Shown here one piece after another: positions 4,952 through 27,026 of a DNA stretch of 64,000 bases. Positions within the stretch are counted from its first letter, which is position 1. The number at the start of each line of letters is the position of its first letter. Under the pieces are notes generated by a model. It saw only the letters and a program-made list of their open reading frames with translations, made no database searches and was not told where the DNA came from. The DNA comes from Caldisericota bacterium (GTDB lineage Bacteria; Caldisericota; Caldisericia; UBA6126; JAGPKI01). The position numbers were made by a program, and so were the translations under genes. Where the stretch lies: NCBI GenBank assembly GCA_052034135.1, contig JBPOJC010000005.1, forward strand, positions 76-64,075, written 5' to 3'.

Positions 4952-6189
4952 AAGAGATTATGGAAGAATTTAAAGAAAAGGCAAAAAGAGCAGAAAATAA
5001 AGCTGCCCTATATGGAGAAGATATAGATTTAAAAAAATATTCATTACCCCCAGAAGAAGAAAATATTTCTTCTCTATCCTCTCTTCCCGATGATCTACAG
5101 GAAATTGCAAAATCATCAGGAATAGATATTGGGGAAAAAGAAAGATCCGGAAGTTACATCCAGCTTGATCAATCTGCAATTTATAGCAGAGTTAATGAAA
5201 TTTACAAAGGACAACTCGAAATAACAAGTATAAATGATGCGCTTTTAAAGTATCCTGAGATTGCTAATGAATATCTATGGAAAACTATTCCCGTTGATCA
5301 GGATAAATATACAGCATTTTCTGAGCTTTATTCAAAGAACGGTTACTTTATAAGGGTATTTAAAGGGCAACATGTTGAAATACCTATTCAGGCGTGTCTT
5401 TTACTTAAAGAAAATTCTTCTGTTCAGAATGTTCACAATATAATAATAATGGAAGAGGGATCAAGTGCACAGATAATTACTGGATGTGCTGTTCACCCAA
5501 AAGTTGATGATGGTATTCACATAGGCATATCTGAATTTTTTATTAAAGATGGAGCAATGCTTACTTTTACAATGATACATAATTGGAGTGAAAATTTTCA
5601 TGTAAGACCAAGATCAGGAGCAATTATAGAAGATAATGGCAAGTTTATAAATAATTATGTACTATTAAAACCCGTTAAAAGCGTCCAAATGTTCCCAGTT
5701 GCCACACTTAAGGGTAATGATTCTCATGCAAAGTTTAATTCATTGATGTATGGACTTAAAAATTCAAAGATTGATGTTGGATCAAAGATAGTTCTTTCTG
5801 GAAACAATTCTTCTGGGGAAGCTATTTCAAGAGCAATAGCTAAGGATTCATCTATTATTAACGCAAGAGGAACTCTCGTTTCAGTTAATAATAGTACACG
5901 AGCTCATCTTGACTGCAGGGGAATACTTCTTTCGGAGAATGCAAAAATTTATGCAGTGCCAGAGCTTTTAGCAGATGGTACACCAAAAGCTGATCTTTCA
6001 CATGAAGCAGCAATAGGACCAATTTCAGATGAAGTGGTTGAATACCTTATGAGCAGAGGTATATCTAAAGATGATGCAGTATCACTTATAACCTCTGGTT
6101 TTATGGATGTAAAAATATTAGGCTTACCAGAACAACTTGAGAATTATATAAATGAACTGGTTAAACTAACAGCAAAAGAGTCTTTATAA
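4942..6189 (+). CDS. sufB: Fe-S cluster assembly protein SufB/SufD family
   Basis: 415 aa with beta-helix-like repeats typical of SufBD. Overlaps the sufC stop codon. Confidence 0.75.
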   Translation: MQLKEIMEEFKEKAKRAENKAALYGEDIDLKKYSLPPEEENISSLSSLPDDLQEIAKSSGIDIGEKERSGSYIQLDQSAIYSRVNEIYKGQLEITSINDALLKYPEIANEYLWKTIPVDQDKYTAFSELYSKNGYFIRVFKGQHVEIPIQACLLLKENSSVQNVHNIIIMEEGSSAQIITGCAVHPKVDDGIHIGISEFFIKDGAMLTFTMIHNWSENFHVRPRSGAIIEDNGKFINNYVLLKPVKSVQMFPVATLKGNDSHAKFNSLMYGLKNSKIDVGSKIVLSGNNSSGEAISRAIAKDSSIINARGTLVSVNNSTRAHLDCRGILLSENAKIYAVPELLADGTPKADLSHEAAIGPISDEVVEYLMSRGISKDDAVSLITSGFMDVKILGLPEQLENYINELVKLTAKESL

Positions 6190-6888
6190 AAGAGAATTTT
6201 ATTATATTGGTTTACTAATAGTTAGTCTTTTTCGTTAATCAAGAAATGTTACTCTATCAACTTATTATCTAAATGAAGAAGTATTCTTCCATAATAATTT
6301 CAGATTATACAAGCTAAAAAGTAGCGAGAATTAAATTTAGAGTTCATAGTGCCAGCTATAACCTTATTATACAATTTCTGAAATATTACTTATTTGAATT
6401 GATGATGGAATCAATAAGGATATTAATCCTTTCAACGTCAAGATATTTATGAAAATACTTTAATTTTTAAAATGCTTCAGTAAGCGATAGAGGCTCTTTC
6501 TAAAGATAATGTAATGTGTTTGGTAATTATATTAAGAAATTTGGTACAAGCATAAAGCTAAAAAAGCTGAAAAGTGTGACCTTTTTCTAACGCCATCAGG
6601 AATTGTCACTTATATTGATTACTAATTAAGCAGAAAAACATTTAATGTAGCGCAGACACATTCCTGTCTGTTCCTTTTAATGCAACTGGCTTAATGCTAT
6701 TAAACGCAAATAAGGAGATCCTTCAGTCGCTGAGATGATGCTTCTTCAGGAAGACGGTGAGTTGTTAGAGATCATTCGGTCGTTGTGAAGACACTTCCTC
6801 TATTTTTTTCTTTCTGAGCGTAAGCGAAGAATCTCCTCATTTAATCTTTTCGTTATTCTTGTAGCGGTGGACATACCTTTATGCCACT

Positions 6889-6962
6889 GTCATCCCCGAA
6901 ATCTTTTATCGGGGATCCAGTAGAGAAGCCGTCATCCCCGAATGTATTTATCGTGGATCCAG
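6889..6962. repeat. Two copies of a 32-bp palindromic element gtcatccccgaNNNNNttatcgGggatccag separated by 10 bp
   Basis: Stem atccccga/tcggggat (8 bp) with a variable 10-nt loop. A third copy lies at 7400-7431 and a reverse-orientation copy at 63906-63936. Confidence 0.75.
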
Positions 6963-7092
6963 ACCAATTTTTAACATTTTTTGTATTTAGGAGTGACAAA
7001 ATTGTCATTTTTACCTCACTTATATATATGGAGAGTTTATTTTTACACATTTTGCATGAGGTAGAAATATGGAACCATCCTTGGTATCCTGG

Positions 7093-7204
7093 ATTCCCGC
7101 TTCCGCGGGAATGACAAGAAGAAAATGCGGGAATGACAAGAAAATCATAGGAATGACAAGAAGAAAATGCGGGAATGACAAGAAAATCATAGGAATGACA
7201 CATT
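7093..7204. repeat. Perfect 8-bp-stem palindrome (attcccgc-ttcc-gcgggaat) followed by five tandem 20-22-bp units (gcgggaatgacaagaagaaaat / gcgggaatgacaagaaaatcat)
   Basis: Read directly from the sequence. Units at 7105-7126, 7127-7148, 7149-7168, 7169-7190 and 7191-7204 (partial). Confidence 0.8.
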
Positions 7205-8370
7205 AGGAGACCCTTCGTCGCTTTTAGAGATGCTCCTCAGGGTGATGGGGGGGGGCAGCCATCCCTTGCTCCTCCCGTCCTTCCGAAGTGCGGTATTTTC
7301 GCACAAGTCCTTAGGAATCTCAACACCCCCACACCGTCATTCTGAGCGAAGCGAAGAATCTCCTCTTTGTCTTTTGTCATCCTCGAATTACATACAATTG
7401 TCATCCCCGAACTCATTTATCGGGGATCCAGACCAATTTTTCTTATATTACAAACATTCTTGTCTGTTTATTGTAATTTCCGAATATATCTGTAAGGATA
7501 CAGAGAAGCGGAGACCCTTACGAAGCTAAATACAGATATGCCTCCTCAGGATGACTCCCAACAATACATTCCGAAGTGCGGTATTTTCGCACAAGTCCTT
7601 AGGAATCGTCTTATTTTTTTTCTGTTAATCAGAAGTCGCATCTTTTAGTGGTTGCAACAAGGTATCTATATATCTATTTTCGATATGGAGTAAAAGAAAT
7701 CTTACACACTTAACTAATTCTTTATAGAATTTTAGGATTTTCTGATGAAGATAACAAAAACATTAGAGGAAAGCAAAAGAAGCAAAACCTTTTAATTAAA
7801 TAAAGTAATTATTAAAGGCATTATAATGTCTGTAAAGCATCCTTTATAGACATACATAAATTATTATAATTTTCGAGATAAATTAAGGAGTTATTTTAGA
7901 ATAAGGCTCATAGAAAGCCTCTACTCTTTCACCTTTCCTTGTTAGAAAAGAGAGCATTCTTGTAATAATATAAGCTCTAATCATTGCTTTAATATCAGAT
8001 ATAATAAAATCCTTCTTTCTTATATTTTATTAAGCAAAGAAATAACTCTTAATTGTTATCTTTCTATTTGAGACTCATTACTATTTCTATTTTTTATCTC
8101 ATATGGTTTAATTATTTTATGAGTTTATAAAATTGAATATGTTTTTGATAAATAAATTAAAGCCTGTTGATATTCTTTTGATTAGCAGGAATATTTATGT
8201 TTAGGCAAAGGTTTATTCTTGCATATTTGAAGCTTTTATTGAAATCTTCATTCTTATATATCTTTTGATTGTTTTGAGTAAAAAATTATGAAGTAACTCA
8301 TAGAAATATGGGAGGTTTTTATAAATTATTTTTTATATTGTTAAAATTTTAATATAGGAGGAATAAGTTT

Positions 8371-8604
8371 ATGAAGATAGGAAAAACAATCAAGTTTTTT
8401 GGCATTCTTTATTTTATTAGTGGTATTATATTAGGTATTGCCTTTGGTCTTTTTCTATCAATAAATATAAAATTATCGTATAGCCCTTTATTTTTTGTTG
8501 TTTTCTGTAGTTTCTTAATTGCATCATCATTTCTCAATGCTATTAATGGTATTTTTTTTGGAAATGAAATACAGAAATTCTTAAATTCATTAAAAAATGA
8601 TTGA
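8371..8604 (+). CDS. Hypothetical small membrane protein (two predicted TM helices)
   Basis: 77-aa hydrophobic ORF. Strong RBS AGGAGG eight nt upstream. Confidence 0.3.
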   Translation: MKIGKTIKFFGILYFISGIILGIAFGLFLSINIKLSYSPLFFVVFCSFLIASSFLNAINGIFFGNEIQKFLNSLKND

Positions 8605-9248
8605 AGCTATCAAATTTGATGATAGTGGTTCCTGATAATCCTACCAACAAAGTTCCAGGAACTCTAATAATTTCTTCAGAAGGCATAAAATTGTAACTGA
8701 AAAACTTCTTTTAACTGGATTCTCCTTTATAATCCTTTACGTATTCCTTACTATGTTACTTTCTGAATATAAATTTGCTATTAAAACTAAACCAATCAAT
8801 ATCACTAATTAATGGCAGTTAGCTATAAATGTTAAAAATTTCAGTAATTTGGCAAAACTGATTTAAATGAAAGAGCTATTGCAAAAGTCAAGCCATAAGC
8901 CAATTAATTCTTTTTAGTAAAACCATCCGTAAATTATGCCTAAATTTATAAATACTTTATATTAATAAGGTTTAATCTTAACGTTGGACTTTAGCCATTC
9001 AGAATTTTATAGTATATAGATAAAAAACAAAATTTGTTTATTCCGACGAATAGGTGTTAATCCTTAAGTTTTTTTCAGAGCAGTAAGTTTTTATGAAAAA
9101 CTTTTTAGAGGGTCAGATTTTGACACTCAAAAGAATATAATTTATAAAATCTTTTAGAAAAAAGGAGGTATTTTAAATCTCTGAGAAAGTAAAGATTTAC
9201 AAATCGATTTATCCTGTAGAAGAGGTATCAGACAAAGAAAGAGAAGAG

Positions 9249-9473
9249 ATGGTTGACTATTTAATAAAGAAAATTCCACGAGATATATTCGAGAAAGTTT
9301 ATGAAGCAATCAAGAAGGATGGAGAACATTGGTATATAGCGCATCATTTCGGCTTTGGAATGAGTGTAAGAAACCTTTTGAGGGGGAAATTTGACTGGAG
9401 AGATGATACTACGCTTGATAATAGCTGGCAAATTCTTGTTAAAGAAGCAGTAAATAAACTTTTTGAATCGTAA
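9249..9473 (+). CDS. Hypothetical protein
   Basis: 74-aa ORF with no recognisable motif. Lies upstream of the cas-like island. Confidence 0.25.
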   Translation: MVDYLIKKIPRDIFEKVYEAIKKDGEHWYIAHHFGFGMSVRNLLRGKFDWRDDTTLDNSWQILVKEAVNKLFES

Positions 9474-9554
9474 ATGCATAAACTAATCGAAAATGTGAGA
9501 ATTGATTTGACAAAATATATCTTAGAGTTACAACATTATACGGAGATGTAAAAT

Positions 9555-9761
9555 ATGGCTGAAAGTAACAAGTATGAGAACAGTAAATTTGTAGAGATAT
9601 TTTGGCATCAGAAATACGATAGAATAGAATTGGATGAAAAGATGCCCATCGAAAAGCTAAATCTTCCATTTCAGACCATTGAGACAATAAACAAGCCCAC
9701 AATAAAAGACCTTGAAGTCAGACTCCACCTAAAGAAAAACTCGATAGCAGATTATAAATAA
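9555..9761 (+). CDS. Hypothetical protein
   Basis: 68-aa ORF with GGAG about 10 nt upstream. Confidence 0.25.
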   Translation: MAESNKYENSKFVEIFWHQKYDRIELDEKMPIEKLNLPFQTIETINKPTIKDLEVRLHLKKNSIADYK

Positions 9762-9821
9762 AATTACTTATAGTTAAAATTACTTATAGTTATTGAAGTG
9801 CATAAGAGAGTGAAATAATGG
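9762..9821 (+). promoter_or_regulatory. Tandem 15-bp direct repeat (aattacttatagtta, twice) followed by a sigma70-like TTGAAG ... TGnAATAAT element upstream of the RAMP operon
   Basis: Repeats at 9762-9776 and 9778-9792. TTGAAG at 9793-9798. Extended -10-like tgaaataat at 9811-9819. Confidence 0.25.
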
Positions 9822-9879
9822 TAAATGTGGTGGATTTATTTGGTAAGGACGCAAAAAAAGTTTTGAAGGTGAAAATAAA

Positions 9880-11001
9880 ATGAAAGAATTTGCAGTAAAA
9901 ATTAAACTTTTAACTCCAATTTGGACGGGGGACGCAAATAGACACAATACTACTTTAAGAGAGACTGGTATAATTGGAAGTTTGAGATGGTGGTATGAAG
10001 CATTAATCAGGGGGCTTGGTGGAACCGCTTGTGACCCAACAAATGAGAGTCTCCGATGTAAATTAGATCATGATAAATTTTATAAGGCAATAAAGAACGG
10101 AAATTCAATTAAAGATGCATTAGATGCGCAAATATGCCAGGTTTGTCAGCTTTTTGGCTGTACAGGTTGGGCAAGAAAATTTAGATTGGAAATAGTAGGC
10201 AACGGTATTACTCCTATTCAAGGAGTATGGATAGGAACAAGAGAAAAGAGAGGGAATAAATATTTAAAGCGAAATATATCAGGCTTGATGTCTAATGATT
10301 TAATAACTTTGAAATTTATCCCATTAAGAGATATTTCTCAACAAGAATGGAGTTTATTGAATATAAGTTTGGGAATAATAGAAAATTATGGAGCTTTAGG
10401 GGCACACATCTCTCAAGGAAATGGTGTAATTGAAGTTGTTGAAAATAATTTGCCTCGTAGTAATAAGCTTTGGACATTTGATTTAAAGAAAAATAAAGAT
10501 AATAGCGAGTTACCTAATTTGAATAATTTTTTCTTTTACAAGTTTCATATCAAATTTAAAGAAAGCTTAGTAAACCTAATTAATAACAATGTTTTTTGGA
10601 CTCATACTTTAGATCATAGTGAATTTAAAAATGACCTAAACTCATGGCGAGTACTTTGGACTAAATATCATTTTCTTCCAATATCATTTCATATAAGGGA
10701 TACTATAAGGTGTTTAGAGAGTGATAGAAATAAAAGGCATGAAATATTTGGCATAGGCGGGGGAAATGCTAAAGGCTCAAAAGTGTTTGCCTCTCATGGA
10801 TATAAAATTGATGAAAAAACCATAGAAGTTCGAGTTTGTGGATATAATGTGGACCAATGTATTAAAAATAGGATAAAGAATGAAATAGGCAGTATGCTGG
10901 AAGAAAAGTTATTTTCGTCAGATGAAAATAGGAAAAACTTAGAAGAATGTATTTTGACAGAAGAAAAAGAGGGTAGCGAATTACTGGAGGGGTTAAAATG
11001 A
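9880..11001 (+). CDS. cmr1: Type III RAMP protein, Cmr1-like (Cas7 group)
   Basis: GIIGSLRWWYEALIRGLGG matches the Cmr1/Cmr6 GSS.(R/K)G.LRWW motif. Inserted CxxC...CQVCQ zinc finger immediately before the LFG G-rich loop. Confidence 0.65.
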   Translation: MKEFAVKIKLLTPIWTGDANRHNTTLRETGIIGSLRWWYEALIRGLGGTACDPTNESLRCKLDHDKFYKAIKNGNSIKDALDAQICQVCQLFGCTGWARKFRLEIVGNGITPIQGVWIGTREKRGNKYLKRNISGLMSNDLITLKFIPLRDISQQEWSLLNISLGIIENYGALGAHISQGNGVIEVVENNLPRSNKLWTFDLKKNKDNSELPNLNNFFFYKFHIKFKESLVNLINNNVFWTHTLDHSEFKNDLNSWRVLWTKYHFLPISFHIRDTIRCLESDRNKRHEIFGIGGGNAKGSKVFASHGYKIDEKTIEVRVCGYNVDQCIKNRIKNEIGSMLEEKLFSSDENRKNLEECILTEEKEGSELLEGLK

Positions 11002-11843
11002 TGCATGACTATTACCTTTCAAAGGCGGAAGAATATGCGGATATTGAGGATATTGAATTAGCTAAAAATAAGAAAGATATTCAGGATAAGTTGAAAAAAG
11101 ATGTAGATGATGAACTTATCCATACCTTTTACCCTTCAAAAGATGATCTCAAAAATCTTCCTCAAAACTCCACTCTTTTAAAAATCTCCTTCACTCTAAA
11201 AAAGTCTTATACAAGCAAAGATGAAGGGGAATTTCATATTTACAATAGTAAAGATAAAAGGGATAAAATCTTTGAAAATCCGATTGTTAGGGATAAATTC
11301 ACAGGGCTTCCTGCAGTAAAGCCTTCAACATGGAAAGGACACTTGCGTTTTGCTGCAAATAAAGCTGAATGGGAAAATGAGCAAGAAAAAAAGGAAATTA
11401 TCAGAAGGCTTTTTGGTTCAGAATCAGAGGAAAAAGAAAATCCATTAAAGGGGAGGCTTTATTTTTTCCCTACATTTTTCAGAGAAGACACAGATATGGA
11501 TGTAATTACCCCCTTGAAAAGAGCCACCAGAATTCCAGCAAGAGGCCCAATAAGCTTAGAAGTTATGAAACCAGGCAAGAATGCTGATTTTTATCTATTA
11601 TACGTTCCCTATCCAAAGGGAGCGGATTTCAAGGAGGAAGATGTCAATAAAGATTTAAGATTTTTAGCTGAGGCTTTAAAACTGATGTTTTATACTTATG
11701 GCTTTTCTGCAAAAAAGACAAGCGGATTTGGGGTAATTGAGAATTTAGAAGCAGGGAATATTGATGTTTATCCTGAAGATAAAAAAGAAATTTTCTCAAT
11801 ACTATACACTAAAGTAAGCGATAGTGTTAACCATGGTGTATAA
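10998..11843 (+). CDS. cmr6: Type III RAMP protein, Cmr6-like (Cas7 group)
   Basis: STWKGHLRF is a degenerate S.KG.LR motif. RRLFGSESEE...KGRLYFFPTFF is an LFG G-rich loop followed by a G.l.F pattern. ATGA overlap with the upstream gene. Confidence 0.55.
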   Translation: MMHDYYLSKAEEYADIEDIELAKNKKDIQDKLKKDVDDELIHTFYPSKDDLKNLPQNSTLLKISFTLKKSYTSKDEGEFHIYNSKDKRDKIFENPIVRDKFTGLPAVKPSTWKGHLRFAANKAEWENEQEKKEIIRRLFGSESEEKENPLKGRLYFFPTFFREDTDMDVITPLKRATRIPARGPISLEVMKPGKNADFYLLYVPYPKGADFKEEDVNKDLRFLAEALKLMFYTYGFSAKKTSGFGVIENLEAGNIDVYPEDKKEIFSILYTKVSDSVNHGV

Positions 11844-11845
11844 AA

Positions 11846-12604
11846 ATGAGAATTAATTTAATAGACCAATTAGCATCTAAAGGAAATACTTTTACCTTTG
11901 AGGAAGCGCAAAAATTAATAGGGTCTGACTATTCTGTGACAAAAGTAATTATTTCTCGTCTTGAGAAAAAGGGATGGATTGAAAGAATTGAGAAGGGTAA
12001 ATATATGATTATTCCTCTGGGAGCTGAGAAAGGTAAGTATACTCTTAATGAGTTTGTTATTGGTTCTATGCTTATTAAGCCTTATGCAATTGCTTACTGG
12101 AGTGCTCTTCATTTTTATGGCCTCACTGAACAAATACCAAATACGGTATTTATTCAAACAACTGCAAGAAAGAAAAATCAAAATATTAAAGTTTTTGGCA
12201 TTAATTATAAAATTGTGAGAATAAAAGAGGCAAAATTCTTTGGTATTCGTAGGGAATGGATAGAAGAAACGCAGATAAATATCACAGATAAAGAAAAAAC
12301 AATAGTGGATTGCTTAGATAAACCTCAGTACTGTGGTGGAATAATAGAAGTAGCAAAAGCATTAAAAAATGGAAGCTTTGATAAGGATAGATTGGAAGTT
12401 TATGCAAATAAAATTGGAAATTCAGGTGTTATTAGGAGACTTGGTTTTCTGTGTGATTTTCTTGGAATCAAGATAAATTTACCTCAAATTAAGACAAAAA
12501 ATTATCTTTATCTTGATCCAACAATGCCACTGGAAGGGCAAAGAAATGCTAAGTGGCGATTAATTATAAATCTTGATGAGAAGATTCTGGGGGCACTTGA
12601 GTGA
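11846..12604 (+). CDS. AbiEi-like winged-helix protein (COG5340 / type IV toxin-antitoxin antitoxin family)
   Basis: N-terminal wHTH with the characteristic LEKKGWIERIEKGKYMI segment (cf. AbiEi L.K.G.L.RL.RG.Y). Its stop overlaps the GTG start of the downstream AbiEii-domain gene (GTGA). Confidence 0.6.
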   Translation: MRINLIDQLASKGNTFTFEEAQKLIGSDYSVTKVIISRLEKKGWIERIEKGKYMIIPLGAEKGKYTLNEFVIGSMLIKPYAIAYWSALHFYGLTEQIPNTVFIQTTARKKNQNIKVFGINYKIVRIKEAKFFGIRREWIEETQINITDKEKTIVDCLDKPQYCGGIIEVAKALKNGSFDKDRLEVYANKIGNSGVIRRLGFLCDFLGIKINLPQIKTKNYLYLDPTMPLEGQRNAKWRLIINLDEKILGALE

Positions 12605-15600
12605 TTTCAAAAAATGAAATACCACAGAAAGCAAGGGAAAAAGAAGTACCTGAATCTACTATTGAGAGAGACTATGTTCAGAACTGGTTACTTATGGCAT
12701 TATCATCTCTTCCTCTTGTACTAAAAGGAGGAACAGGTATAAGAAAGGTGTATGTTGAAGATTATAGATTTTCTGATGATTTAGATTTTACATTACTTAA
12801 TAGGATTGATGAAGATGAATTAAGAGAAATAATAGAAAAATCAGTGGAAAAAGCAAGAGAAGAAAGTGGAATAAATTTTAGTAGGGATATAGGGTTTTGT
12901 AAAAATGATAATGGTTTTGAAGCAGATGTCTATTTTCAGCTTATGCAAACGGGAAGCAATAGAACATCAGTAAAGATAGATATAACAAACTGTGAGAATG
13001 AGAGGATACTTTTACCAGTAGATATAAAGAAGATAATTCATCCATATTCTGATGATTTAAATGCTGAAGTAAAAGTATATGCTCTTGAAGAGATGATTAC
13101 AGAAAAGATAAGGAGTCTTTTTCAGAGAACAAGACCGAGAGATCTATATGATGTATGGTATATGTGGGATAAGGTGGATAGAAGAAAAATTTTTAAAATT
13201 CTTCCTGAAAAATTTAAATCAAAAAATGTTGAGATGGATATAAAAGATTTTGAGCAAAGGAAAAATGACTTTGAAGGTGCTTGGAAAAATTCTCTTGGTC
13301 ATCAACTTAAAGAGTTACCTGAATTTGAAAATGTGTTTTTGACCGTGTTTGAGGAGGTAAAAAAGATGCTTATTGATATAATTAGTAATAATAAAGAAAA
13401 TATCTTAATTGGTGAAATTGGGGCTTTGCTTCATGATATTGGAAAATGCCACCCAGATTTTATAAGGGTACAGTCTTTAGAGCATGAAACTAATTTTGTT
13501 CACGAAAATATTGATAAATTTTTGAAACCTGAGCTTATTGATACCCTTAAAAAGGTAAAAATAAAATTCGATAATGAAGAAAAATCAGTCTATGATCTTA
13601 TTCGTTATCACCATGATGCTAAGGGAACTCTTTTAAAATATTTAGAAAAATGTGATCGCTTAGATTCAGCTGATGATAAAGGAGTTGTGAGAAAAAAACA
13701 GTCAAAAGATGATACTATTATATGTTCACCATTTGGTTTTTCTAAAGAAAAGATTGATCTTCAGTGTTTGCAAAAAAGACTAAACGATTTAGAAAGTAAT
13801 TTGATAGGATTATTCCAAAATTATGTATCTGGTAGTTTAGATATAGTCTGTTTTAGAAAATGTTTGATGAATAACCTAAACACAACATTTTCCTGTGCTC
13901 TTGGAGAGACAAGGATCCCAGCAAATGATGTAACCCTCTGGGATCATTCACATTCTACGGCATCGCTCTTTAAGTCTGCATTGTGTGCGATGGTCCTTGG
14001 TGAAAAACCTGATAAAGACAAATTGCAATGGAGGATCTTTGGATTTTGCTGGGATGGTATTGGTTTTATAAATAAAGGTAAGGAAGTTGCTGACATTCTT
14101 CAGAGAAAAAAAATTATTGATGAGATGAAGAGAAAATTAAAAGATAAATTTGAAGAAGAGATCCCAATTGGTAATGTAATTTATGAGGATAATAATGGGA
14201 TTTATTTTACATTTCCAGCATTGAATAACAATTCAGAAGCACTTGCAAAAGAATGTGCAAAGATAGGACTTGATATTATTAGAAAAGATAGTAATGATGA
14301 GATATGGCCATTTTTCACATTGAGTAAGCCACATAGAACCCTTACAATCCTTACTGAAGAATTAAAATTTGCTTCTAAGGAAAGAGCTATACCTAAAATG
14401 ACACCAACTTTATTTATTGAAGGAAATGGAGAGATAACGTTAGATAATCCTGAAATAGATACTCCAAAAGATGGTTGGGATATTTGTCCTATCTGTAGAT
14501 TAAGAGCAAAGCTTGAGGATGATGATAGATGTGATGTTTGTAAAGAAAGAAAAAAAGGGAGATTAGATAGTTGGCTTAGTAGTAGAGAGAATACAATCTG
14601 GATAGATGAAGTTGCGGATGATAATAATCGCATTGCATTACTTACCCTAAGCTTTGACCTTGATAAATGGCTTGATGGTACGATGATTGGAACCATTTTT
14701 TCTCAAACTCTTGAGGACTGGAAAAATAGCAAAGATGCGATTAAGTTTTTCAGTAATAAACAAAACGAACAAAAGCTAAAAAGTAAAGGCATAAATATTA
14801 ATGATGCTCCTATTAATTTATCAAAAAATTGTTTGAAAATTATTACAGATGAGGATCCCTTAAAAAAGGATCCCTCAAAAGACCCTGCATTTAAAAGTGA
14901 ACTGATAAATACATTTTACGAGGATGTTAAATCTACTCAAAATGAAAAAGATGAGAATTATATTGAAAAATTTATTGATAATCTTAAAGTACGTGTAGGT
15001 CCTGAACCATTTAATTCATCTAATCTGCAAAAAGTAATTTTCACTCAAAATCCATCTCCTGCTCGTTTGTATAGAATTTGGAAAGAGACAGATGAATTTT
15101 TTGGTTTAGTTACTAAAGATATAAAAGGAGGAATCTATTCTCGTAAACGGAAAAGGCTACATTTCTCAGCAGATAATAACGCTTTAAAAGTTAAGATAGA
15201 TCTTGAGAGTATAGAAAATACTCCTTTAGAAAATACTCCTTTAATAATAAAAATAAATGGTTTAAAGCCTGAAAGTATTTTAGTCATTCATACATCAGGT
15301 GGTGAATTTTATACCATTGAATCACTTGAAAAATTTAAATACGGAGATAAATCAGGCCCTGATGTCGTTAAAGACGCTTTAAGTAAAGGGTTATATTGGA
15401 TTTCAGAGGAAGATAAACCTGATATTAATCTACTAAAGAATGGTCAAAATATAAAGATTAATGGCATTCTTTCAGAAGAAGATTATTATCCCATTATTGA
15501 AATTACAAAGTCTCCATTGTCAATGCGACTAATTGTACCAGCATCTGACTCTATATCAATTTTGAAGTCAATAGTAAAGCTATATAATCAAAGATTTGAA

Positions 15601-16284
15601 AAGGTTTTAGGGAAATTACCTTTTAATATTGGTTTACTCGTTTCAAAGAGGAAGTTTCCACTCTATGTTTTATTAGATACTGGAGAAAGATTATTTCATG
15701 CTAAAGAGTTTAAGAAGCCTGAAATGATGGATGCATGGTGGGATATAAATGATCTTAGGAATGACGAATTTTACAGTTTTTATCCAGTAACAAAATTTGA
15801 AGATCAAAAATACAATCTTGATGATTTAGTTCCATTATCTAAAGGCAAAATCTATTCTTTATATCCTGGATATTTTGACTTTGACTTAATCCTTGGTACA
15901 CAAGATAGATACAATATTACCTACAATGAGAAAAGAAGAGCTAATAACGATTACATGCTATTTTCTAAAAGACCTTGTTATTTTTATCAATTTCCACAGA
16001 TGATTGACTTATGGGAAATTCTTAATAATAATCTCTCAAGCTCTCAAATTAACTTTATTGAAGAATCATTAACAAATAAACTGCGAGAATGGCGCAATGT
16101 TAATGAACCTATAAAAAATGATGTATTCAGAAAGTTTGTAGAGGCAACAATAAAAGATGCATTTAGCAGTAACTGGGATAAATTAGAAAAGGAGACCAAA
16201 GATTTTATTTTAAACTCTGCTTACAATGGGTTTTTACTTGATACCATAGTTTTATTTAATCATACTATAAAGAAGGGAGAATAA
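12601..16284 (+). CDS. cas10: Fusion protein: N-terminal AbiEii/DUF1814 nucleotidyltransferase domain plus Cas10-like large subunit (HD nuclease, degenerate palm domains, zinc finger, C-terminal helical domain)
   Basis: aa 39-66: LKGGTGIRKVYVEDYRFSDDLDFTL (Pol-beta NTase GS and DxD motifs as in AbiEii). aa 178-188: RPRDLYDVWYM (DUF1814 R.RDLYD motif). aa 264 onward: IGALLHDIGKC (canonical Csm1 N-terminal HD motif), then RYHHDAKG and CDRLDSADD. aa 481: GFCWDGIGFI (Cas10 palm-1 D.SGIQ.FI-like motif). aa 629-648: CPICRL...CDVCKER treble clef. aa 676: IALLTLSFDLD. No GGDD; only SGGEFY at aa 899. Confidence 0.7.
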   Translation: MISKNEIPQKAREKEVPESTIERDYVQNWLLMALSSLPLVLKGGTGIRKVYVEDYRFSDDLDFTLLNRIDEDELREIIEKSVEKAREESGINFSRDIGFCKNDNGFEADVYFQLMQTGSNRTSVKIDITNCENERILLPVDIKKIIHPYSDDLNAEVKVYALEEMITEKIRSLFQRTRPRDLYDVWYMWDKVDRRKIFKILPEKFKSKNVEMDIKDFEQRKNDFEGAWKNSLGHQLKELPEFENVFLTVFEEVKKMLIDIISNNKENILIGEIGALLHDIGKCHPDFIRVQSLEHETNFVHENIDKFLKPELIDTLKKVKIKFDNEEKSVYDLIRYHHDAKGTLLKYLEKCDRLDSADDKGVVRKKQSKDDTIICSPFGFSKEKIDLQCLQKRLNDLESNLIGLFQNYVSGSLDIVCFRKCLMNNLNTTFSCALGETRIPANDVTLWDHSHSTASLFKSALCAMVLGEKPDKDKLQWRIFGFCWDGIGFINKGKEVADILQRKKIIDEMKRKLKDKFEEEIPIGNVIYEDNNGIYFTFPALNNNSEALAKECAKIGLDIIRKDSNDEIWPFFTLSKPHRTLTILTEELKFASKERAIPKMTPTLFIEGNGEITLDNPEIDTPKDGWDICPICRLRAKLEDDDRCDVCKERKKGRLDSWLSSRENTIWIDEVADDNNRIALLTLSFDLDKWLDGTMIGTIFSQTLEDWKNSKDAIKFFSNKQNEQKLKSKGININDAPINLSKNCLKIITDEDPLKKDPSKDPAFKSELINTFYEDVKSTQNEKDENYIEKFIDNLKVRVGPEPFNSSNLQKVIFTQNPSPARLYRIWKETDEFFGLVTKDIKGGIYSRKRKRLHFSADNNALKVKIDLESIENTPLENTPLIIKINGLKPESILVIHTSGGEFYTIESLEKFKYGDKSGPDVVKDALSKGLYWISEEDKPDINLLKNGQNIKINGILSEEDYYPIIEITKSPLSMRLIVPASDSISILKSIVKLYNQRFEKVLGKLPFNIGLLVSKRKFPLYVLLDTGERLFHAKEFKKPEMMDAWWDINDLRNDEFYSFYPVTKFEDQKYNLDDLVPLSKGKIYSLYPGYFDFDLILGTQDRYNITYNEKRRANNDYMLFSKRPCYFYQFPQMIDLWEILNNNLSSSQINFIEESLTNKLREWRNVNEPIKNDVFRKFVEATIKDAFSSNWDKLEKETKDFILNSAYNGFLLDTIVLFNHTIKKGE

Positions 16285-16289
16285 TTAAA

Positions 16290-17195
16290 ATGGATGTACC
16301 TAAAAAATATTTTGCAATAACTCTTGATCCTGTACATATCGGGGCTGGCGGATATAGACTTGGTTTTGTAGATAATACTATAGTAAGGGAACCAGCTACT
16401 GATATACCTAAAATTCCTGGGACATCACTGGCAGGTGTAATAAGAGCGTTTGCAGAGTTAGTTAAAACAGAGGATGATAAGATAGCTGATACAGAGAAGA
16501 AATTCAAGAATATAAATATTGAAACAGCATTCGGTGATGAAAATAAACAGGGAATGTTAAGGTTCTATGATGGACAGATAATCTTTTTCCCAGTATCTTC
16601 AATTGAGGGGACAGTCTGGATAACTACAAAAGAATTACTTGAATACTGGCTTGGAGACATGAAGGATGAACAAGGCAAGAAAATTACAATTCCATATGAA
16701 GTGCAAGATAAAGCATATGCAGTAAAAGGAGTTAATCCTGAAGCATTAAAGCTTGGATTAAATCTTGGATGGCTATTGCTGGAGATTCAGAATATTACTG
16801 GAGGGAAAGAAGTTGTACTGCCATCAGAATTAGAGAATTTCTTAAAAAGGATTGTAGTCGTTTCAGATAAGCTATTTTCTCATCTGGTAAATGACAATTT
16901 AGAAGTGAGAACATCTGTAAAAATCGATCCAAAGACAGGGACAGCATCTGAAGGAGCATTGTTTACATACGAAGCCATACCAAGAGGAACTATATTAGGA
17001 TTTGAAATGGTTATAGATACAAGAAGGGAAAATGTAGATGATATTGAAACATTAATTAAAGCCACGTTTCCTTATTTAAAGCTTCTTGGTGTAGGTGGAC
17101 TGGGAACACGAGGTTTTGGAAGGATTAATATGTTTGGAATAAATGAAAATAATGCTCAATCCTCAAAAGGAGGAAAAGTAAATGATAAATCTTGA
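16290..17195 (+). CDS. cmr4: Cas7 backbone RAMP (Csm3/Cmr4-like) with the catalytic Asp conserved
   Basis: PVHIGAGGYRLGFVDNTIVREPATDIPKIPGTSLAGVIRAF aligns with Csm3 LHIGGGG...AIDSPVVRD...IPGSSIKG. C-terminal G-rich loop LLGVGGLGTRGFGRINMFG. RBS AGGGAG upstream. Confidence 0.8.
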   Translation: MDVPKKYFAITLDPVHIGAGGYRLGFVDNTIVREPATDIPKIPGTSLAGVIRAFAELVKTEDDKIADTEKKFKNINIETAFGDENKQGMLRFYDGQIIFFPVSSIEGTVWITTKELLEYWLGDMKDEQGKKITIPYEVQDKAYAVKGVNPEALKLGLNLGWLLLEIQNITGGKEVVLPSELENFLKRIVVVSDKLFSHLVNDNLEVRTSVKIDPKTGTASEGALFTYEAIPRGTILGFEMVIDTRRENVDDIETLIKATFPYLKLLGVGGLGTRGFGRINMFGINENNAQSSKGGKVNDKS

Positions 17196-17577
17196 TTATT
17201 TATGCACAAAAATTGGTCAGGAAATAGGAGAAATGAAAAAGGAAAGAAATGAATCTACTCTTAGTACTCTTAGGAAGGCTCTTGGTATTTTACAAGAAGA
17301 TGGAGTTTATGCAATGTTTCTTTGGCTTGAAAAAGAAAATAGTGGGATAAGAAAAAAATTAACTACCGAGCTAAATGGTAGTGATATAGTTAAAAAATAT
17401 CTTTTACAAAATTCAGAGGGTTTTCGTGACGATTTTAAAGAATTTTGTAAAGACCTTAGCGAGCTTTCTCAGGATATTGATAAACTATTCTTTCTTAAAA
17501 AGATACTTGAACGTTCATTAACTTATGCTTTGTATCACGCAAAGATAAAAGGTGTCGAAAATGTGGCAGAGACTTGA
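17182..17577 (+). CDS. cmr5: Candidate Cas11 small subunit (Cmr5/Csm2-like)
   Basis: 131-aa predicted all-helical protein sitting between the Cas7 and Cas5 genes, as expected for Cas11. Strong RBS AAAGGAGGA. No sequence motif could be verified by eye. Confidence 0.4.
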   Translation: MINLDYLCTKIGQEIGEMKKERNESTLSTLRKALGILQEDGVYAMFLWLEKENSGIRKKLTTELNGSDIVKKYLLQNSEGFRDDFKEFCKDLSELSQDIDKLFFLKKILERSLTYALYHAKIKGVENVAET

Positions 17578-18499
17578 TATTGTTTTTGTTTTAAAGAGTC
17601 CATTACATATTGGTTATCTCCCATTTAGAGGTTTGGTAATATCTCCTACAAGATATTATGTCCCTGGTAGGAATTTCTGGGGTGCGATAACAAAAAGATT
17701 GAAAGAAAACTTGTATGAAAATCCTGTAGAGGAATATAAAAAAATAGGTGAACAGATTAAAGAAAACTTTAGATTTTCATATTTTTATTTATACGATGGA
17801 GAAACTATTTTTATCCCTAAATATAACGAGGAGGGATTAACTTTTGGAGATAAAAAGCAAATAGATAAATTTCAATTTGAATATAGATTTATAGGTAGTA
17901 GAGTTTTAACTGCTATAAATAGTGATTCAGGGACGGCAAAAGACGAAAGTCTTCATGAAATAGAGTTTATAAAAGATAAGTTTAGTGATGATGGAGACCG
18001 TATTAAAGATACAAAAATCATTGGTTGTATCTGGGTAAAAGAAAATTCTAAGATTCAGGATTACGAAGTTAAAATTGAAAATAATGGGATTTTTGTAAAT
18101 GAATTTAACCTTATTGAAGAATTAACTCTTGGTGGAGAGCAAGGGTATGGTTTTGGTTTAGTGGGGGTAGAGGCTATCTTAAACAAGAAATTATTTCCAA
18201 TAGACAGTTTAGACAATGAAGACGTTAAAATAAGTTTAGAAAAAGATAAACCGATTCTATCCCATCTTAAATATGATAAGAAAATTCCTTTTAAAGGTGA
18301 CTTAGAACTCTTAACTGGTAGAGGTTATTTTGATGTTGAGAGAGAAAACAGTTTAGAAAGAGGATATAAAGAAAATCCTGGTAATGTGCTTTCTAATATA
18401 AATTATTACTTCTCTCCTGGTACAATTATTAATTTTGAAAATGATAGAAAATATAGTATTGGCTGGAATGGAATTTTATTAATGAATGATAATCAATGA
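17552..18499 (+). CDS. cmr3: Type III RAMP, Cas5 group (Cmr3/Csm4-like)
   Basis: N-terminal SPLHIGYLPFRGLVISPTRYYVPGRNFWGAITKRL (P.HIG ... PG....GAI). G-rich loop LTLGGEQGYGFGLVG. The true start may be ATG 17561, which has a better RBS. Confidence 0.55.
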   Translation: MSKMWQRLDIVFVLKSPLHIGYLPFRGLVISPTRYYVPGRNFWGAITKRLKENLYENPVEEYKKIGEQIKENFRFSYFYLYDGETIFIPKYNEEGLTFGDKKQIDKFQFEYRFIGSRVLTAINSDSGTAKDESLHEIEFIKDKFSDDGDRIKDTKIIGCIWVKENSKIQDYEVKIENNGIFVNEFNLIEELTLGGEQGYGFGLVGVEAILNKKLFPIDSLDNEDVKISLEKDKPILSHLKYDKKIPFKGDLELLTGRGYFDVERENSLERGYKENPGNVLSNINYYFSPGTIINFENDRKYSIGWNGILLMNDNQ

Positions 18500-18859
18500 A
18501 ACCTACAGAACTTTTGCTTTCAAAGCAAAGCATATTTAGTTGATTAGCATTGAAGAGTAGAACATACCTTGCGGGAACAGGGTTATCCTAATAATACTTC
18601 TACAACAAAATTTTAAGGAATTTTTTTCAATCTTTAAAGACTAATAATATGAGTGAAGCAATAATAATAGCTTTAATTGAATAGTATCAGTAAATATTTT
18701 ATTATTTAATGTTTTTCACTCATATCTGATGTTTTATTTAAAAATTACGTTTAAATAATTTCAATTTTAAAATATAAAAATAAAAATTGATTTATAATAT
18801 TTAAGCATTAAACGAACAAGCTTCAAGAATTATAAATTTTAGCATAGGAGGAGATTAAA

Positions 18860-19186
18860 ATGGAGAAAACTACTTTAGGTTTAAGTGAAAATTTAGAAAG
18901 TCTTTTTTGTTACATTTTAGGTTGGATAACAGGAATAATATTCTTGATTCTTGAAAAGAACAGCAAGTTTGTAAAATTTCATGCTCTACAATCAATTTTT
19001 ACATTTCTACCCATATCGATAATAGGTGTAATATTTATGTGGATCCCAATAGTAGGAGTGGTTATTAACTGGATATTGTCGATTATCTCCTTTATATTGT
19101 GGATATTACTAATGTACAAAGCATATCAAGGTGAAAAATATAAACTTCCAATTGTTGGAGATTTTGCAGAAAAAGAAATAAAATAA
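18860..19186 (+). CDS. DUF4870-like small membrane protein
   Basis: LSFCYILGWITGIIF...FHALQS motif. Strong RBS GGAGGAG. Confidence 0.45.
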   Translation: MEKTTLGLSENLESLFCYILGWITGIIFLILEKNSKFVKFHALQSIFTFLPISIIGVIFMWIPIVGVVINWILSIISFILWILLMYKAYQGEKYKLPIVGDFAEKEIK

Positions 19187-19247
19187 TTTATATCTTTATA
19201 ATAGCAAAAAGCATGTTAAAATAAGCTTTAATCAGTGAAAAAGTATA

Positions 19248-20105
19248 TTATTTTATTTCAATTACGTTTGAGTCTTCATCAAAGGGTGGAGTCTGGTCTA
19301 CTATAAAGCCATATTTGAACTTTTCAAATCCCTCTACTTCTCTGATTTGCTCTCTTCCAGTAAGCAATGCAAGAAGTACAATTCCCATTGGCACGATCAG
19401 AAAAGTTGAATATTGGTTTAGTGATAAATTAAAAGGAGGAAATCTTGGAACTGCTCTTAAGAATTCAATAAAAAATGTTAATATGCCATAAAATATAAGT
19501 GCCCATGAGAAAGTTTTACCATAGAACTTCTTGTTAGAATCAATCCTCAGAAGTATAAAGAAAATAATAAATGCACCAATAGAAGTGAACAATTGGGTTG
19601 GGTAGCGTGGATAGTCAAAAGGACTAAATCTAAAACCAATCAATGAATTTGTAGGTAACCCAACACAGCAACCATTTAGGAAGCAACCAATTCTGCCAAT
19701 TGCATAGCCTAAAGTTGTTCCTATTGATAATACATCAAGCAATGCCCAGTAATTTACTTTTCTTCTTTTTGCAAACCAGTATGTTATAAGTACTCCAGCA
19801 ACAACTATCCCAATAAAAGATAATCCTTCACCGCCATTCCTTATTATCTCAATTGGATTACTTAAAAAATAGAAAAAGCCATTTGTCAATATATAAAAAA
19901 GCTTTGCTCCAATCAATCCTCCTATTATTAAATAGAGCAAGAGGTCGAGGAGATCGTCTTCACTTAAGCCTATTTTTTTTGCTCTTTTTATTATAGAAAG
20001 GAAACCAACAATTATACCTATGGCAATAAGTAAACCATAACTTCTTAAAACAAAAGGTCCAAAATGAGCTATTTCTGGATACACTTTTTTGTCCTCCTTA
20101 TGCAA
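19248..20105 (-). CDS. lgt: Prolipoprotein diacylglyceryl transferase
   Basis: Multi-TM protein with Lgt signature regions (GPF.LRSYGL, GRIGCFLNGCC). Confidence 0.8.
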   Translation of the reverse strand: MHKEDKKVYPEIAHFGPFVLRSYGLLIAIGIIVGFLSIIKRAKKIGLSEDDLLDLLLYLIIGGLIGAKLFYILTNGFFYFLSNPIEIIRNGGEGLSFIGIVVAGVLITYWFAKRRKVNYWALLDVLSIGTTLGYAIGRIGCFLNGCCVGLPTNSLIGFRFSPFDYPRYPTQLFTSIGAFIIFFILLRIDSNKKFYGKTFSWALIFYGILTFFIEFLRAVPRFPPFNLSLNQYSTFLIVPMGIVLLALLTGREQIREVEGFEKFKYGFIVDQTPPFDEDSNVIEIK

Positions 20106-26134: not shown

Positions 26135-27026
26135 ATTCTTTGTCGCTTTTACGTTTCTTTCTGAGAAGATAAAAATTTCTTATCTCGTCATATTCCTCAA
26201 GTTGAAAGAATTCAGAGATATAATAATCTAACTCATTTATATATCTAACGAAGATTTCTCTCGTTTTTAGGCGCCAATCTCTTGCCAGAAAAGGAACTTC
26301 TTTACGCATTTCGTAATAATCATAAGGAATTTCCACTGCAATAGTTTCTCCCTTCAAGTCAAGATTAATATTTGATATCTCTCTAAAAAGTAAAGCTTGT
26401 TTTATTCCTCTTGTTGTTATTGAATAAAGGATTCTAATAGTTTCGTTTGCTTTCTGAAAATATAATCTTTCTCTTAGCTTTATCTGAGGTATTTTTAAAT
26501 CTTCAATTCTTTTTCTTACCCTTTTAGTTTTGATTTTCCACTCTAAATAAAATCTATCAGCAGGGATAGAAACTCCTGTACTTATTGGCAATTCGCTATA
26601 TGCTTCAATGCAATATTTACGAATGATTCCGCCCAATTTTCTTATATTTAGATTCGCATTGATGCCAAGAAGGGGATCATAGGTCCATACAATTTTTTTA
26701 ATTCCTCTTTCGAGAGCAATTTTATATTGTTCTTGTTTTAGGCGGAAACCCAAAGACTTTTTTTGATAGGCTGTATAAATACCTGCAGTGTCACTGATAA
26801 GATAATAACCATCTTTAGGGTTATATGCTGGTAGCGCAAAATTGAATCCAATAAGTTTATTGTCAACGTAGATTCCAAGTGTTAAGCCACCATTTTCTGC
26901 GATAAGCTCCATTAAATAAGCTGGAACTATCCCCACTTCATTAAGTGGGGATAGTTCCTTTTGTATTTCTTCGCAAGCAAAATAATCTTCTTTGCTACTT
27001 ACAGGTTTTATTACAATATTATTCAA
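26109..27026 (-). CDS. Putative GNAT-like acyltransferase family protein
   Basis: 305 aa. Weak resemblance to GNAT/FemAB-like acyl-CoA N-acyltransferases. Assignment uncertain. Confidence 0.3.
   Translation of the reverse strand: MNNIVIKPVSSKEDYFACEEIQKELSPLNEVGIVPAYLMELIAENGGLTLGIYVDNKLIGFNFALPAYNPKDGYYLISDTAGIYTAYQKKSLGFRLKQEQYKIALERGIKKIVWTYDPLLGINANLNIRKLGGIIRKYCIEAYSELPISTGVSIPADRFYLEWKIKTKRVRKRIEDLKIPQIKLRERLYFQKANETIRILYSITTRGIKQALLFREISNINLDLKGETIAVEIPYDYYEMRKEVPFLARDWRLKTREIFVRYINELDYYISEFFQLEEYDEIRNFYLLRKKRKSDKEFRDSESLF

Follow-up and report, generated by a model that had tools for sequence, protein, structure and literature searches.

What are the short repeats that crowd positions 6700-7620 of the window (the whole stretch of 64,000 nucleotides analysed here), and do they belong to transposons, to RNAs or to some other kind of element? 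The host is an uncultured bacterium of the class Caldisericia with a low-GC genome (32%) that recurs in anaerobic digesters. A preliminary description had portrayed the region as free of genes and had proposed either a nest of MITE-like elements or a cluster of small structured RNAs. The lack of genes was borne out, as Pfam searches with the region's ORFs yielded no credible gene there. The three mechanically called ORFs (6853-7203, minus strand; 6881-7114 and 7230-7529, plus strand) had no Pfam match and are, as previously supposed, artefacts that translate the repeats, giving peptides such as WIPASAGMT and RKCGNDKK. The four module types listed earlier are all present, and none is expected by chance. 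Describing the region as built almost entirely of repeats was correct as to the repeats but overstated their extent, because 557 of its 921 nt (60%) belong to modules, about 14 short copies or fragments of five families named P, T, R, S and Q; the remainder is AT-rich spacer (GC 0.34, against 0.46 in the modules).

We interpret the region, with a probability of roughly three in four, as an intergenic, NIME-like mosaic in which Ssn-related hairpin repeats, relatives of the Neisseria NTS/dRS3 repeats, occur singly and in pairs. This kind of element is already known, and the Caldisericia case is a fresh example of it, not a novel element type.

Five hairpin families and their common grammar

All five families share one grammar, a GTC(A/T) head followed by a palindrome and then a C. 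The head is present in P1-P4, T, R, S1b, S1c, S2a, S2b, S3a and Q1, the exceptions being S1a, which begins with ATC, and Q2 and a decayed R copy, which are devoid of GTC(A/T); the C stands directly 3' of the palindrome in all full modules (...AT-C, ...GT-C, ...AAT-C). Two classes can be distinguished. The NTS class (P and T) has a perfect 8-bp Watson-Crick stem and the tail ATCCAG. In the GA class (R, S and Q), an outer stem of 4-5 bp encloses a tandem 5'-GA/5'-GA mismatch and an inner hairpin that varies, and the tail is TCTCC. A loose scan for GTC, a 5-bp stem and C was dropped, as its 21 matches were no better than random (15.5 ± 4.4), and class-specific grammars were therefore used instead. 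The GA-class grammar gave 90 matches against 0-2 in shuffled sequences, with inner stems that covary.

P is a 32-nt palindrome, GTCATCCCCGAA-N9-TCGGGGATCCAG, found at 6889, 6931 and 7400 on the plus strand and at 63905 on the minus strand; shuffled sequence yielded no P match. P1 (6888-6920, plus) is the hairpin TGTCATCCCCGAAATCTTTTATCGGGGATCCAG, and both P2 (6930-6972, plus), which carries one stem mismatch, and P3 (7399-7441, plus) include a ACCAATTTTT extension. A head-only copy of a variant named P' (7375-7398, plus; TGTCATCCTCGAA...) belongs to a 56-nt unit that is found again at 63906-63961. In a related species (L101), the P' hairpin is complete (GTCATCCTCGAA..TCGAGGATC), and a P' variant of the related species shows a compensatory stem change. 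P2 forms the left end of a composite in which an AT-rich spacer of 117 nt (6973-7089), likened to the RS element of NIME, leads to T (7090-7117, minus; TGTCATTCCCGCGGAAGCGGGAATCCAG). By alignment, this composite recurs at 1-145 of L043, a stretch from the same organism. T is followed at 7118-7200 (minus) by four head-only half sites, GTCATTCCCGC / GTCATTCCTATG, with a period of 20-22 nt, inside a perfect twofold 42-nt tandem (7108-7191). Both the NTS/dRS3-type hairpin at 7090-7117 and the four head-only copies had been overlooked in the preliminary description.

The GA-class modules lie on either side of this composite. The three S copies of the region (ggagaYccttc...ctcagg), at 6714-6759, 7205-7247 and 7507-7556, represent three sub-families with a mutual likeness of only about 60-75%, and their better counterparts lie at 53238-53440. 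S2a (6714-6759, minus) reads GTCTTCCT-GA-AGAAGC..GCGACT-GA-AGGATCTCC on its own strand and has a relative at 53287-53333. It is followed by S2c (6767-6801, minus), a truncated S2 that has lost its head, as seen by alignment to an intact S2(rc)-R pair at L043:140-245, and by the decayed R copy (6806-6841, plus), with its head mutated to TTTC, a 1-nt insertion and the shared 3' flank CTCATTTAATCT. The intact R (7335-7365, plus) is cgtcattctgagcgaagcgaagaatctcctc, which resolves into CGTCATTCT-GA-GCGAAGC-GA-AGAATCTCCTC.

S1a (7205-7247, minus; ATCACCCT-GA-GGAGC..GCGAC-GA-AGGGTCTCC) forms a heads-in pair with Q1 (7277-7319, plus; GTCCTTCC-GA-AGTGCG..CGCAC..TA-GGAATC), and such an S1(rc)-Q pair recurs at L043:5760-5850. 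L043 also contains a Q variant with the full GTCAT head and the GA..GA arrangement. A second heads-in pair joins S3a (7507-7556, minus), a GA-class variant reading GTCATCCT-GA-GGAGGC..CTTCG-TA-AGGGTCTCCGCT with a relative at 53393-53440, to Q2 (7569-7607, plus). The 39-nt Q unit is 100% identical between 7281-7319 and 7569-7607; its first copy had previously been placed about 3 nt off. A run of T follows Q2.

The hairpin potential claimed for the modules differed between families. P and T fold at -7.7 to -9.8 kcal/mol (z -3.2 to -4.7), including P1 at -9.8 kcal/mol (z -4.7) and P3 at -8.4 kcal/mol (z -3.6); the mutated P2 reaches only -3.0 kcal/mol. Q has a moderate potential (z -1.8). Under nearest-neighbour Watson-Crick DNA parameters, R and S show none, being no more stable than shuffled sequences (z > 0); with tandem G·A pairs admitted, both do form a hairpin. 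Sheared G·A pairs and the GCGAAGC mini-hairpin are known DNA structures, and together with the covariation of the inner stems they suggest that the folding of R, S and Q depends on non-canonical G·A pairs.

The modules are not unique to this locus, as further copies occur elsewhere in the window and in other genomes. A decayed nest with an R/S-like module lies at 39054-39103 (minus), upstream of tRNA-Arg; a second nest, lying between a zincin-like gene and mscL (53238-53440, minus), is a tandem of S1b, S2b, S1c and S3b; and a third (63905-64000, minus), with P4, two head-only copies and more, runs about 230 nt past the window end (L043:5690-6060). All four nests of the window are intergenic, and the head octamer is 49-fold enriched in them (13.3 versus 0.27 per kb). 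Nest size also differs between relatives: the syntenic gpsA/tRNA-Met interval holds one module in a related species (L100) versus at least seven here (L043).

Likeness to the Neisseria NTS/dRS3 repeats

NTS-type hairpins flank the gene of the small GIY-YIG nuclease Ssn in Neisseria and in many other bacteria, and are cut by Ssn as single-stranded DNA (Chenal et al. 2025, PMC11893778). Repeats of this kind are called Ssn-related motifs (SRM), inverted repeats of 20-50 nt that can fold into a hairpin as ssDNA. Cutting depends most on the three bases that precede the palindrome on its 5' side, and binding on the C that follows it immediately; among genomes with more than 200 SRM, 81% have a gene for an SsnA homolog (PMC11893778). 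T is a perfect dRS3 of the Neisseria type (ATTCCC-N8-GGGAAT) and shares 26 of the 28 NTS consensus positions, and its exact 25-mer was found in six IMG/VR contigs. The T copy at L043:117-144, in the same organism, fits the published SRM pattern and is identical to a gonococcal NTS at 27 of 28 positions. An unbiased blastn search with the region picked out N. gonorrhoeae, where the match lies in the NTS and half-site array directly upstream of the ssnA homolog; window positions 7086-7157 are about 80% identical to this hairpin/half-site array. The half-site layout of 7118-7200 recurs upstream of ssnA in N. gonorrhoeae, and likewise in Gallionella; it is also present in the related Caldisericia species (L101).

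The published SRM pattern, HGTCWYN(0-2)YYVSBRHN(0-5)WNVSBRGN(0-2)RNCYNB, had no match in the window and one in the same organism (L043:117-144), compared with eight in a control of 3 kb from N. gonorrhoeae. The causes of this mismatch could be traced: the P loop, at 9 nt, is 2 nt too long, the T loop begins with G, and the GA-class R, S and Q fall outside the pattern altogether. Once the loop limit was set to 12, the four P copies matched. Repeats that surround the ssn genes of L019, L022, L082 and L094-L098 likewise escape the pattern, and both variants that it misses, the long-loop P and the GA class (R, S, Q), are abundant and flank ssn-type genes in other genomes. Therefore, censuses of the repeats, and of the nuclease specificities proposed as ssDNA tools, are probably underestimates.

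The arrangement of the modules resembles the Neisseria arrays in several respects. GC-rich hairpins alternate with AT-rich spacers and produce a GC wave, dRS3-type inverted repeats surround spacers of 50-150 nt as in NIME (here the 117-nt spacer between P2 and T), array length at syntenic sites varies between relatives, and variable or acquired genes adjoin. The differences are that the host is a member of the Caldisericia and not a proteobacterium, that at least five hairpin families are mixed here versus one in Neisseria, with most copies belonging to the GA class and not to the NTS class, and that the spacers are mostly not repeated RS families as they are in NIME. In 2007, NIME arrays were presented as specific to Neisseria (Bentley et al. 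2007, PMC1797815); NIME-like arrays of Ssn-type hairpins now extend to the Caldisericia.

Small GIY-YIG genes between the repeats

The link between the modules and Ssn came from other genomes. The exact P pattern had 14 matches among GTDB genomes from several phyla and 19 among metagenomes; by our own estimate, about 0.07 would be expected by chance. In Gallionella and Paraglaciecola (L019/L036, L022), P lies within 120 nt of 95-aa single-domain GIY-YIG genes, and the Gallionella protein shares 65% identity with the gonococcal SsnA homolog. The exact 25-mer of R was found in 35 IMG/VR stretches, and R brackets a GIY-YIG gene in six of the six contexts fetched (L082, L094-L098), with conservation around the gene that begins and ends exactly at the two heads; the protein encoded there is 46% identical to the gonococcal homolog. 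A T-like NTS flanks an ssn gene in L099. Assignment of the flanked genes rests on PF01541 and on the 46-65% identity to the gonococcal homolog, cd10448 being the published class. S1 and Q are tied to ssn by grammar only, because their patterns had no match in IMG/VR. Altogether, the modules agree with the SRM that flank cd10448 nucleases in the GTC(W) head, the hairpin (for R and S one that would need tandem G·A pairs) and the C immediately after it, in the inverted copies that bracket a single-domain GIY-YIG gene of about 95-111 aa, and in the spread of the motif across phyla.

In the host itself, unlike in Neisseria, a search of about 76 kb, covering the window with 5 kb ahead of it and 6 kb beyond it, detected neither ssnA nor any other GIY-YIG gene; regular expressions, phmmer with consensus sequences and tblastn with three homologs were all negative. 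A 22-aa tblastn match in L043 was rejected as chance, as it sits inside the gene of a CCA-adding enzyme. A PDB search with an Ssn homolog returned spurious WD40 matches only.

On this basis, the modules would fold whenever the DNA is single-stranded, during replication, uptake or repair, and a small GIY-YIG nuclease of the Ssn family would bind the folded modules and cut a few bases 5' of the head. In Neisseria, such cutting restricts incoming DNA bearing the repeats. Elsewhere the repeats double as the inverted ends of a compact hairpin-ssn-hairpin unit. The nest is therefore best read as piled-up solo ends, end pairs and decayed copies, which would grow and shrink by recombination.

A bolder, tentative extension, to which we give limited credence, is that the hairpin-ssn-hairpin unit is a mobile element with the GIY-YIG ssDNA nuclease acting as its transposase, and that the nests are its solo ends. 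Several observations fit: R is identical over 25 of 25 positions in hosts of 37-64% GC; the NTS is identical at 27 of 28 positions between Caldisericia and Neisseria, and roughly 70 nt ahead of ssnA are about 80% identical; target duplications are lacking, and the ends lie in a T|...|A context; and head-only copies recur 5' of full copies. If this were true, the head-only copies would be footprints of ssDNA insertion targeting existing hairpins, and the GA class would be a second substrate class, with tandem sheared G·A pairs, that is read by a distinct Ssn clade.

RNA, transposon and CRISPR alternatives

The modules could instead act as RNA, in the form of small structured RNAs, terminators, or hairpins in untranslated regions that stabilise or regulate mRNA. 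P, T and Q do form stable hairpins, the nests lie in promoter-bearing or 3' intergenic regions (e.g., upstream of mscL and after the suf operon), and Q2 has a T-run after it. The data nevertheless make this reading unlikely. The Rfam 15 scan gave no match in the region, be it rRNA, tRNA or riboswitch, at E <= 1 or at the gathering threshold, and it recovered two tRNAs elsewhere in the window, the only ones there, at 39496 and 63563. Orientations are mixed within a single nest, promoter-like and terminator-like sites occur at chance level, and both the conserved non-palindromic heads and tails and the linkage to a gene for a DNA nuclease speak for recognition as DNA. In addition, SsnA binds and cuts NTS as ssDNA only and has no action on RNA (PMC11893778). 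The earlier suggestion of a cluster of small structured RNAs found no support.

The MITE-like reading survives in part, in that the modules are non-autonomous, multi-copy, intergenic hairpin repeats. They share with Correia elements and other MITEs a short, non-coding sequence, inverted ends and the possibility of nesting; they also break assemblies, and inverted pairs of 60-110 nt with GTCAT...ATGAC ends occur in other genomes. That they are classical MITEs, i.e., deletion derivatives of DDE-transposase insertion sequences moved in trans by cut-and-paste as dsDNA, is very improbable. Unlike such elements, 15 of the 18 composites show no target-site duplication, be it TA or other, the ends themselves form hairpins, and many copies are solo ends or heads-in pairs, which does not resemble a TIR element. 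Pfam identified no transposase, integrase or Y1 transposase among the window ORFs of at least 80 aa, the sole gene type found bracketed by module ends is the GIY-YIG nuclease, and we know of no DDE parent for the modules.

REP/BIME-type elements, maintained by a RAYT (a REP-associated tyrosine transposase from the IS200/IS605 Y1 family), follow the same logic: a short conserved head and then a variable hairpin, recognised on one strand. As in E. coli and Pseudomonas, the modules here form mosaic clusters of alternating orientation and lack target duplications, and the gene is flanked by its own repeats. The head is GTCA here, and REP elements begin with GTAG. The enzyme also differs, as the flanked gene is GIY-YIG (PF01541) in eight independent contexts and not the HUH-type Y1_Tnp, and neither a RAYT nor another Y1 transposase was detected among the window ORFs by Pfam. 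A REP/BIME origin is accordingly just as improbable as a MITE origin, and the likeness has been drawn before, since the Ssn paper itself compares the Ssn repeats with REP (PMC11893778).

Finally, the region could be what is left of a CRISPR array, or its leader, that went with the type III (Csx11) cas genes nearby. This idea is suggested by 32-nt palindromic repeats about 2.3 kb upstream of an operon near which no array was found in the window. The copy distribution, with the same modules at three loci far from cas genes and beside GIY-YIG genes in other phyla, effectively refutes it, and the irregular repeat spacing (42 and 469 nt) and the five unrelated families on both strands also speak against it. 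To say that the region directly borders the cas-like island was loose wording, because the first cas gene starts at 9880.

The preferred reading, a NIME-like mosaic of Ssn-related hairpins, also bears on the assembly of this digester organism. On both sides, each of the assembly contigs that were fetched terminates in a nest, and all Logan contigs stop at window position 6838, inside the decayed R copy; the repeat nests explain the assembly breaks at these loci. They also account for spurious 'hypothetical proteins' with the peptides WIPA.AGMT or RFAQNDG.

Hairpin modules and their layout

The largest non-coding stretch of the window, which is otherwise gene-dense at 32% GC, lies at 6190-9880. 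Within it, region 6700-7620 is a real feature, which we take, with a probability of about 75%, to be a nest of Ssn-type hairpin repeats similar to the NIME arrays of Neisseria. The repeats of the preliminary description are present here. Family P, a 32-nt palindrome (GTCATCCCCGAA-N9-TCGGGGATCCAG) that was not seen in shuffles, occurs three times on one strand (6889, 6931, 7400) and once on the other (63905); Q is a 39-nt unit whose copies at 7281 and 7569 are 100% identical; R (CGTCATTCTGAGCGAAGCGAAGAATCTCCTC) is found at 7335, with a decayed copy at 6806; and the three S units (GGAGAYCCTTC...CTCAGG; 6714, 7205 and 7507) represent three sub-families with their nearest relatives at 53238-53440. 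The T hairpin, on the minus strand at 7090-7117, had been overlooked; after it come four head-only copies (the GTCAT head and 5' arm without the rest of the hairpin) in a perfect 42-nt x2 tandem. Modules take up 60% of the 921 nt and have a GC content of 0.46, versus 0.34 for the spacers. Three mechanical ORFs lacked Pfam matches and encode translated repeats, in agreement with their earlier dismissal as artefacts.

Some modules recur as composites, both in this nest and in L043, a stretch of the same organism that runs past the window end. These are P-ACCAATTTT-AT-rich spacer-T(rc) (6930-7117 and L043:1-145; rc, reverse complement), S2(rc)-R (L043:140-245 and, in decayed form, 6767-6846) and S1(rc)-Q (7205-7319 and also L043).

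On the appropriate strand, all modules follow a common layout of a GTC(A/T) head, a palindrome and a C. The head octamer GTC[AT]YYCY was counted 20 times in 1.5 kb of nests versus 17 times in the remaining 62.5 kb, the latter being the random expectation. P and T form perfect 8-bp stems (ssDNA folding -7.7 to -9.8 kcal/mol, z -3.2 to -4.7), P2, which is mutated, folds more weakly (-3.0 kcal/mol) and Q lies between P/T and R/S; with Watson-Crick parameters, the stability of R and S did not exceed that of shuffles. A second, GA-class layout is common to R, S and Q, GTCA-YYCY-GA-[inner hairpin]-GA-RGRR-TCTCC, found 90 times in the 680 kb examined versus 0-2 times in shuffles, and its inner segment covaries (GCGAAGC, GCGTAGC, ACGCAGT, GGCTGC-TTT-GCAGCC, GGCCCGC-TCG-GCGGGCC, G-GA-GC...GC-GA-C). 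Given the general properties of Py-GA-Pu steps and of the stable d(GCGAAGC) mini-hairpin, we read the conserved 5'-GA/5'-GA steps as putative tandem sheared G·A pairs.

Relation to Neisseria repeats and GIY-YIG genes

The Neisseria NTS repeat (CGTCATTCCCGCGMAVGCGGGAATCYRG) includes the older dRS3, and the small GIY-YIG nuclease SsnA, which has a single domain, binds and cuts it solely in the form of ssDNA; cutting is governed by the three bases 5' of the palindrome and binding by the C just 3' of it, and related SRM (Ssn-related motif) hairpins flank ssn genes across phyla (Chenal et al. 2025, PMC11893778). T contains an exact dRS3 and matches the NTS consensus at 26/28 positions. Its sister copy at L043:117-144 conforms to the SRM pattern as published and shares 27 of 28 positions with a gonococcal NTS.

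A blind blastn search of 6700-7620 against PLSDB led to N. gonorrhoeae, in records that are chromosomes labelled as plasmids; NZ_CP119142.1 (fetched at 1880076-1883122) and NZ_CP119140.1 are 2.17-Mb gonococcal chromosomes. The match lies within an array of inverted NTS and half sites that immediately precedes a gonococcal ssnA homolog, itself flanked by NTS copies on both sides. In both records this homolog has no in-frame ATG ahead of the GIY-YIG motif, which could mean a pseudogene or an unusual start. One arrangement is common to window 6930-7200, N. gonorrhoeae and Gallionella: a left hairpin, a spacer, an inverted NTS-type hairpin and tandem half sites.

Such head-only copies are found repeatedly in this organism as well as in unrelated phyla, and ssnA of both N. 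gonorrhoeae and Gallionella has them upstream. Each comprises 8-13 nt of the head and 5' arm; they are spaced at 19-25 nt and lie next to full hairpins, on the 5' side (window 7118-7200, 7375-7398 and 63940-63961; L043:5695-5985; L101:1108-1190, from a related Caldisericia species; and comparison stretches L036, L057, L068 and L085).

The exact P pattern was also found in Coxiellaceae, Gamma- and Deltaproteobacteria, Omnitrophota and Gallionella, where it mostly forms the left member of an inverted pair spanning 60-110 nt. A 95-aa GIY-YIG gene (PF01541, E ~4e-15) lies right beside it in Gallionella and Paraglaciecola, the Gallionella protein being 65% identical to the gonococcal one. The exact R 25-mer was present in 35 IMG/VR stretches (host GC 37-64%), and inverted R copies bracketed a GIY-YIG gene in all six fetched contexts of one clade, including a Verrucomicrobiae MAG. 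The encoded protein and its gonococcal counterpart share 46% identity, the downstream R copy overlaps the stop codon, and the unit is a conserved block bounded exactly by the two heads. Most close homologs of this gene (list P0001-P0120) lie on contigs <2 kb, as expected if flanking repeats routinely break metagenome assemblies. S and Q would be tied to ssn through the shared GA-class layout only.

The published SRM pattern had no match in the window and also overlooks the repeats around ssn genes in the P-flanked (L019, L022) and R-bracketed contexts (L082, L094-L098); it is therefore narrower than the real diversity. The nest places a recently defined kind of repeat in a new phylum and adds two classes of variant that the published motif does not cover.

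Nests in this organism and its relatives

Further nests are located at 39.0 kb (decayed, upstream of tRNA-Arg), 53.2 kb (53238-53440; four S copies, upstream of mscL) and 63.9 kb (near tRNA-Met, running past the window end). The four S-type modules at 53238-53440 share one orientation, occupy most of the intergenic space that separates mscL from a divergent zincin-like gene, and stop ~80 nt short of the mscL start, where they could affect its expression. Identical contigs occur in many anaerobic-digester assemblies, and all those fetched stop within a nest, as multi-copy repeats cause assemblers to do.

NIME arrays consist of dRS3 hairpins between AT-richer spacers, which produces a GC wave; they hold syntenic positions, differ in length between strains and, as of 2007, were unseen beyond Neisseria (Bentley et al. 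2007, PMC1797815). The same behaviour, a syntenic site with variable length, is observed in Caldisericia nests. RF1 of the present organism shares 88-90% identity with proteins labelled 'Caldisericia bacterium', which assigns it to this class. The gpsA/tRNA-Met interval holds one S2-like module in a related species (RF1 89% identical) versus at least seven here. Another nest of that species contains T(rc) and three half sites, and its P' variant carries a compensatory stem change (CCCCGA/TCGGGG to CCTCGA/TCGAGG).

In two relatives (L105:5864-6763; L103:8706-10031), glnA comes directly after sufBD, whereas in the window ~100 nt of glnA remain after sufBD (6186-6282; 78% identical to the glnA start of a close relative); next come the nest, 2.3 kb of AT-rich DNA and then a type III cas operon. 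The loss of glnA places the main nest and the cas island at a synteny break. The first cas gene starts at 9880, ~2.3 kb from the nest, which makes the earlier description of a direct border a loose one.

Possible roles, alternative explanations and the cas operon

An Ssn-type nuclease would, we infer, cut the modules, which may serve in restriction of incoming ssDNA, act as a recombination hot spot or be neutral passengers; their mode of spread is likewise conjectural. No ssn gene was found in the window and the 11 kb of flanks examined. This absence, together with recurrent head-only tandems and identical sequences across phyla, leaves room for the tentative idea, to which we give a minority weight, that the hairpin-ssn-hairpin unit constitutes a mobile element, with the GIY-YIG ssDNA nuclease as its driving enzyme. 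It is improbable that the modules act as RNA, since nothing favoured the small structured RNAs suggested earlier: an Rfam scan found no match in the region and promoter/terminator scans were at chance level. In their logic, REP/RAYT elements come closest, but the gene that accompanies the modules belongs to the wrong family; we consider this assignment slightly less probable still. Equally unlikely are classical MITEs, the other early suggestion, given that 15 of 18 composites lack a target duplication and that no transposase was found in the window. A CRISPR remnant was ruled out by repeat spacing and distribution.

CRISPR arrays were detected neither upstream (7600-9900) nor downstream (18400-19300) of the type III cas operon. 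The 2.3 kb upstream of the operon have 24% GC and contain small ORFs only, without family matches. Csx11 (TIGR02682, E 1.6e-225; 11846-16284) combines an N-terminal AbiEii nucleotidyltransferase domain (PF08843) with an HD domain, and an AbiEi-like gene lies just upstream within the RAMP operon (9880-18499); the arrangement resembles a toxin-antitoxin module fused to a type III effector. Within csx11, a stretch of 16 nt is duplicated in tandem (15212-15243). Elsewhere, a perfect 16-nt inverted repeat with a 4-nt loop (26923-26958) is located in the 5' part of an ORF without a family match, and paralogous acetate/butyrate-kinase-like genes (31366-32427 and 33381-34454), sharing a 185-nt stretch of 83% identity, lie either side of a phosphotransacetylase/butyrylase gene.
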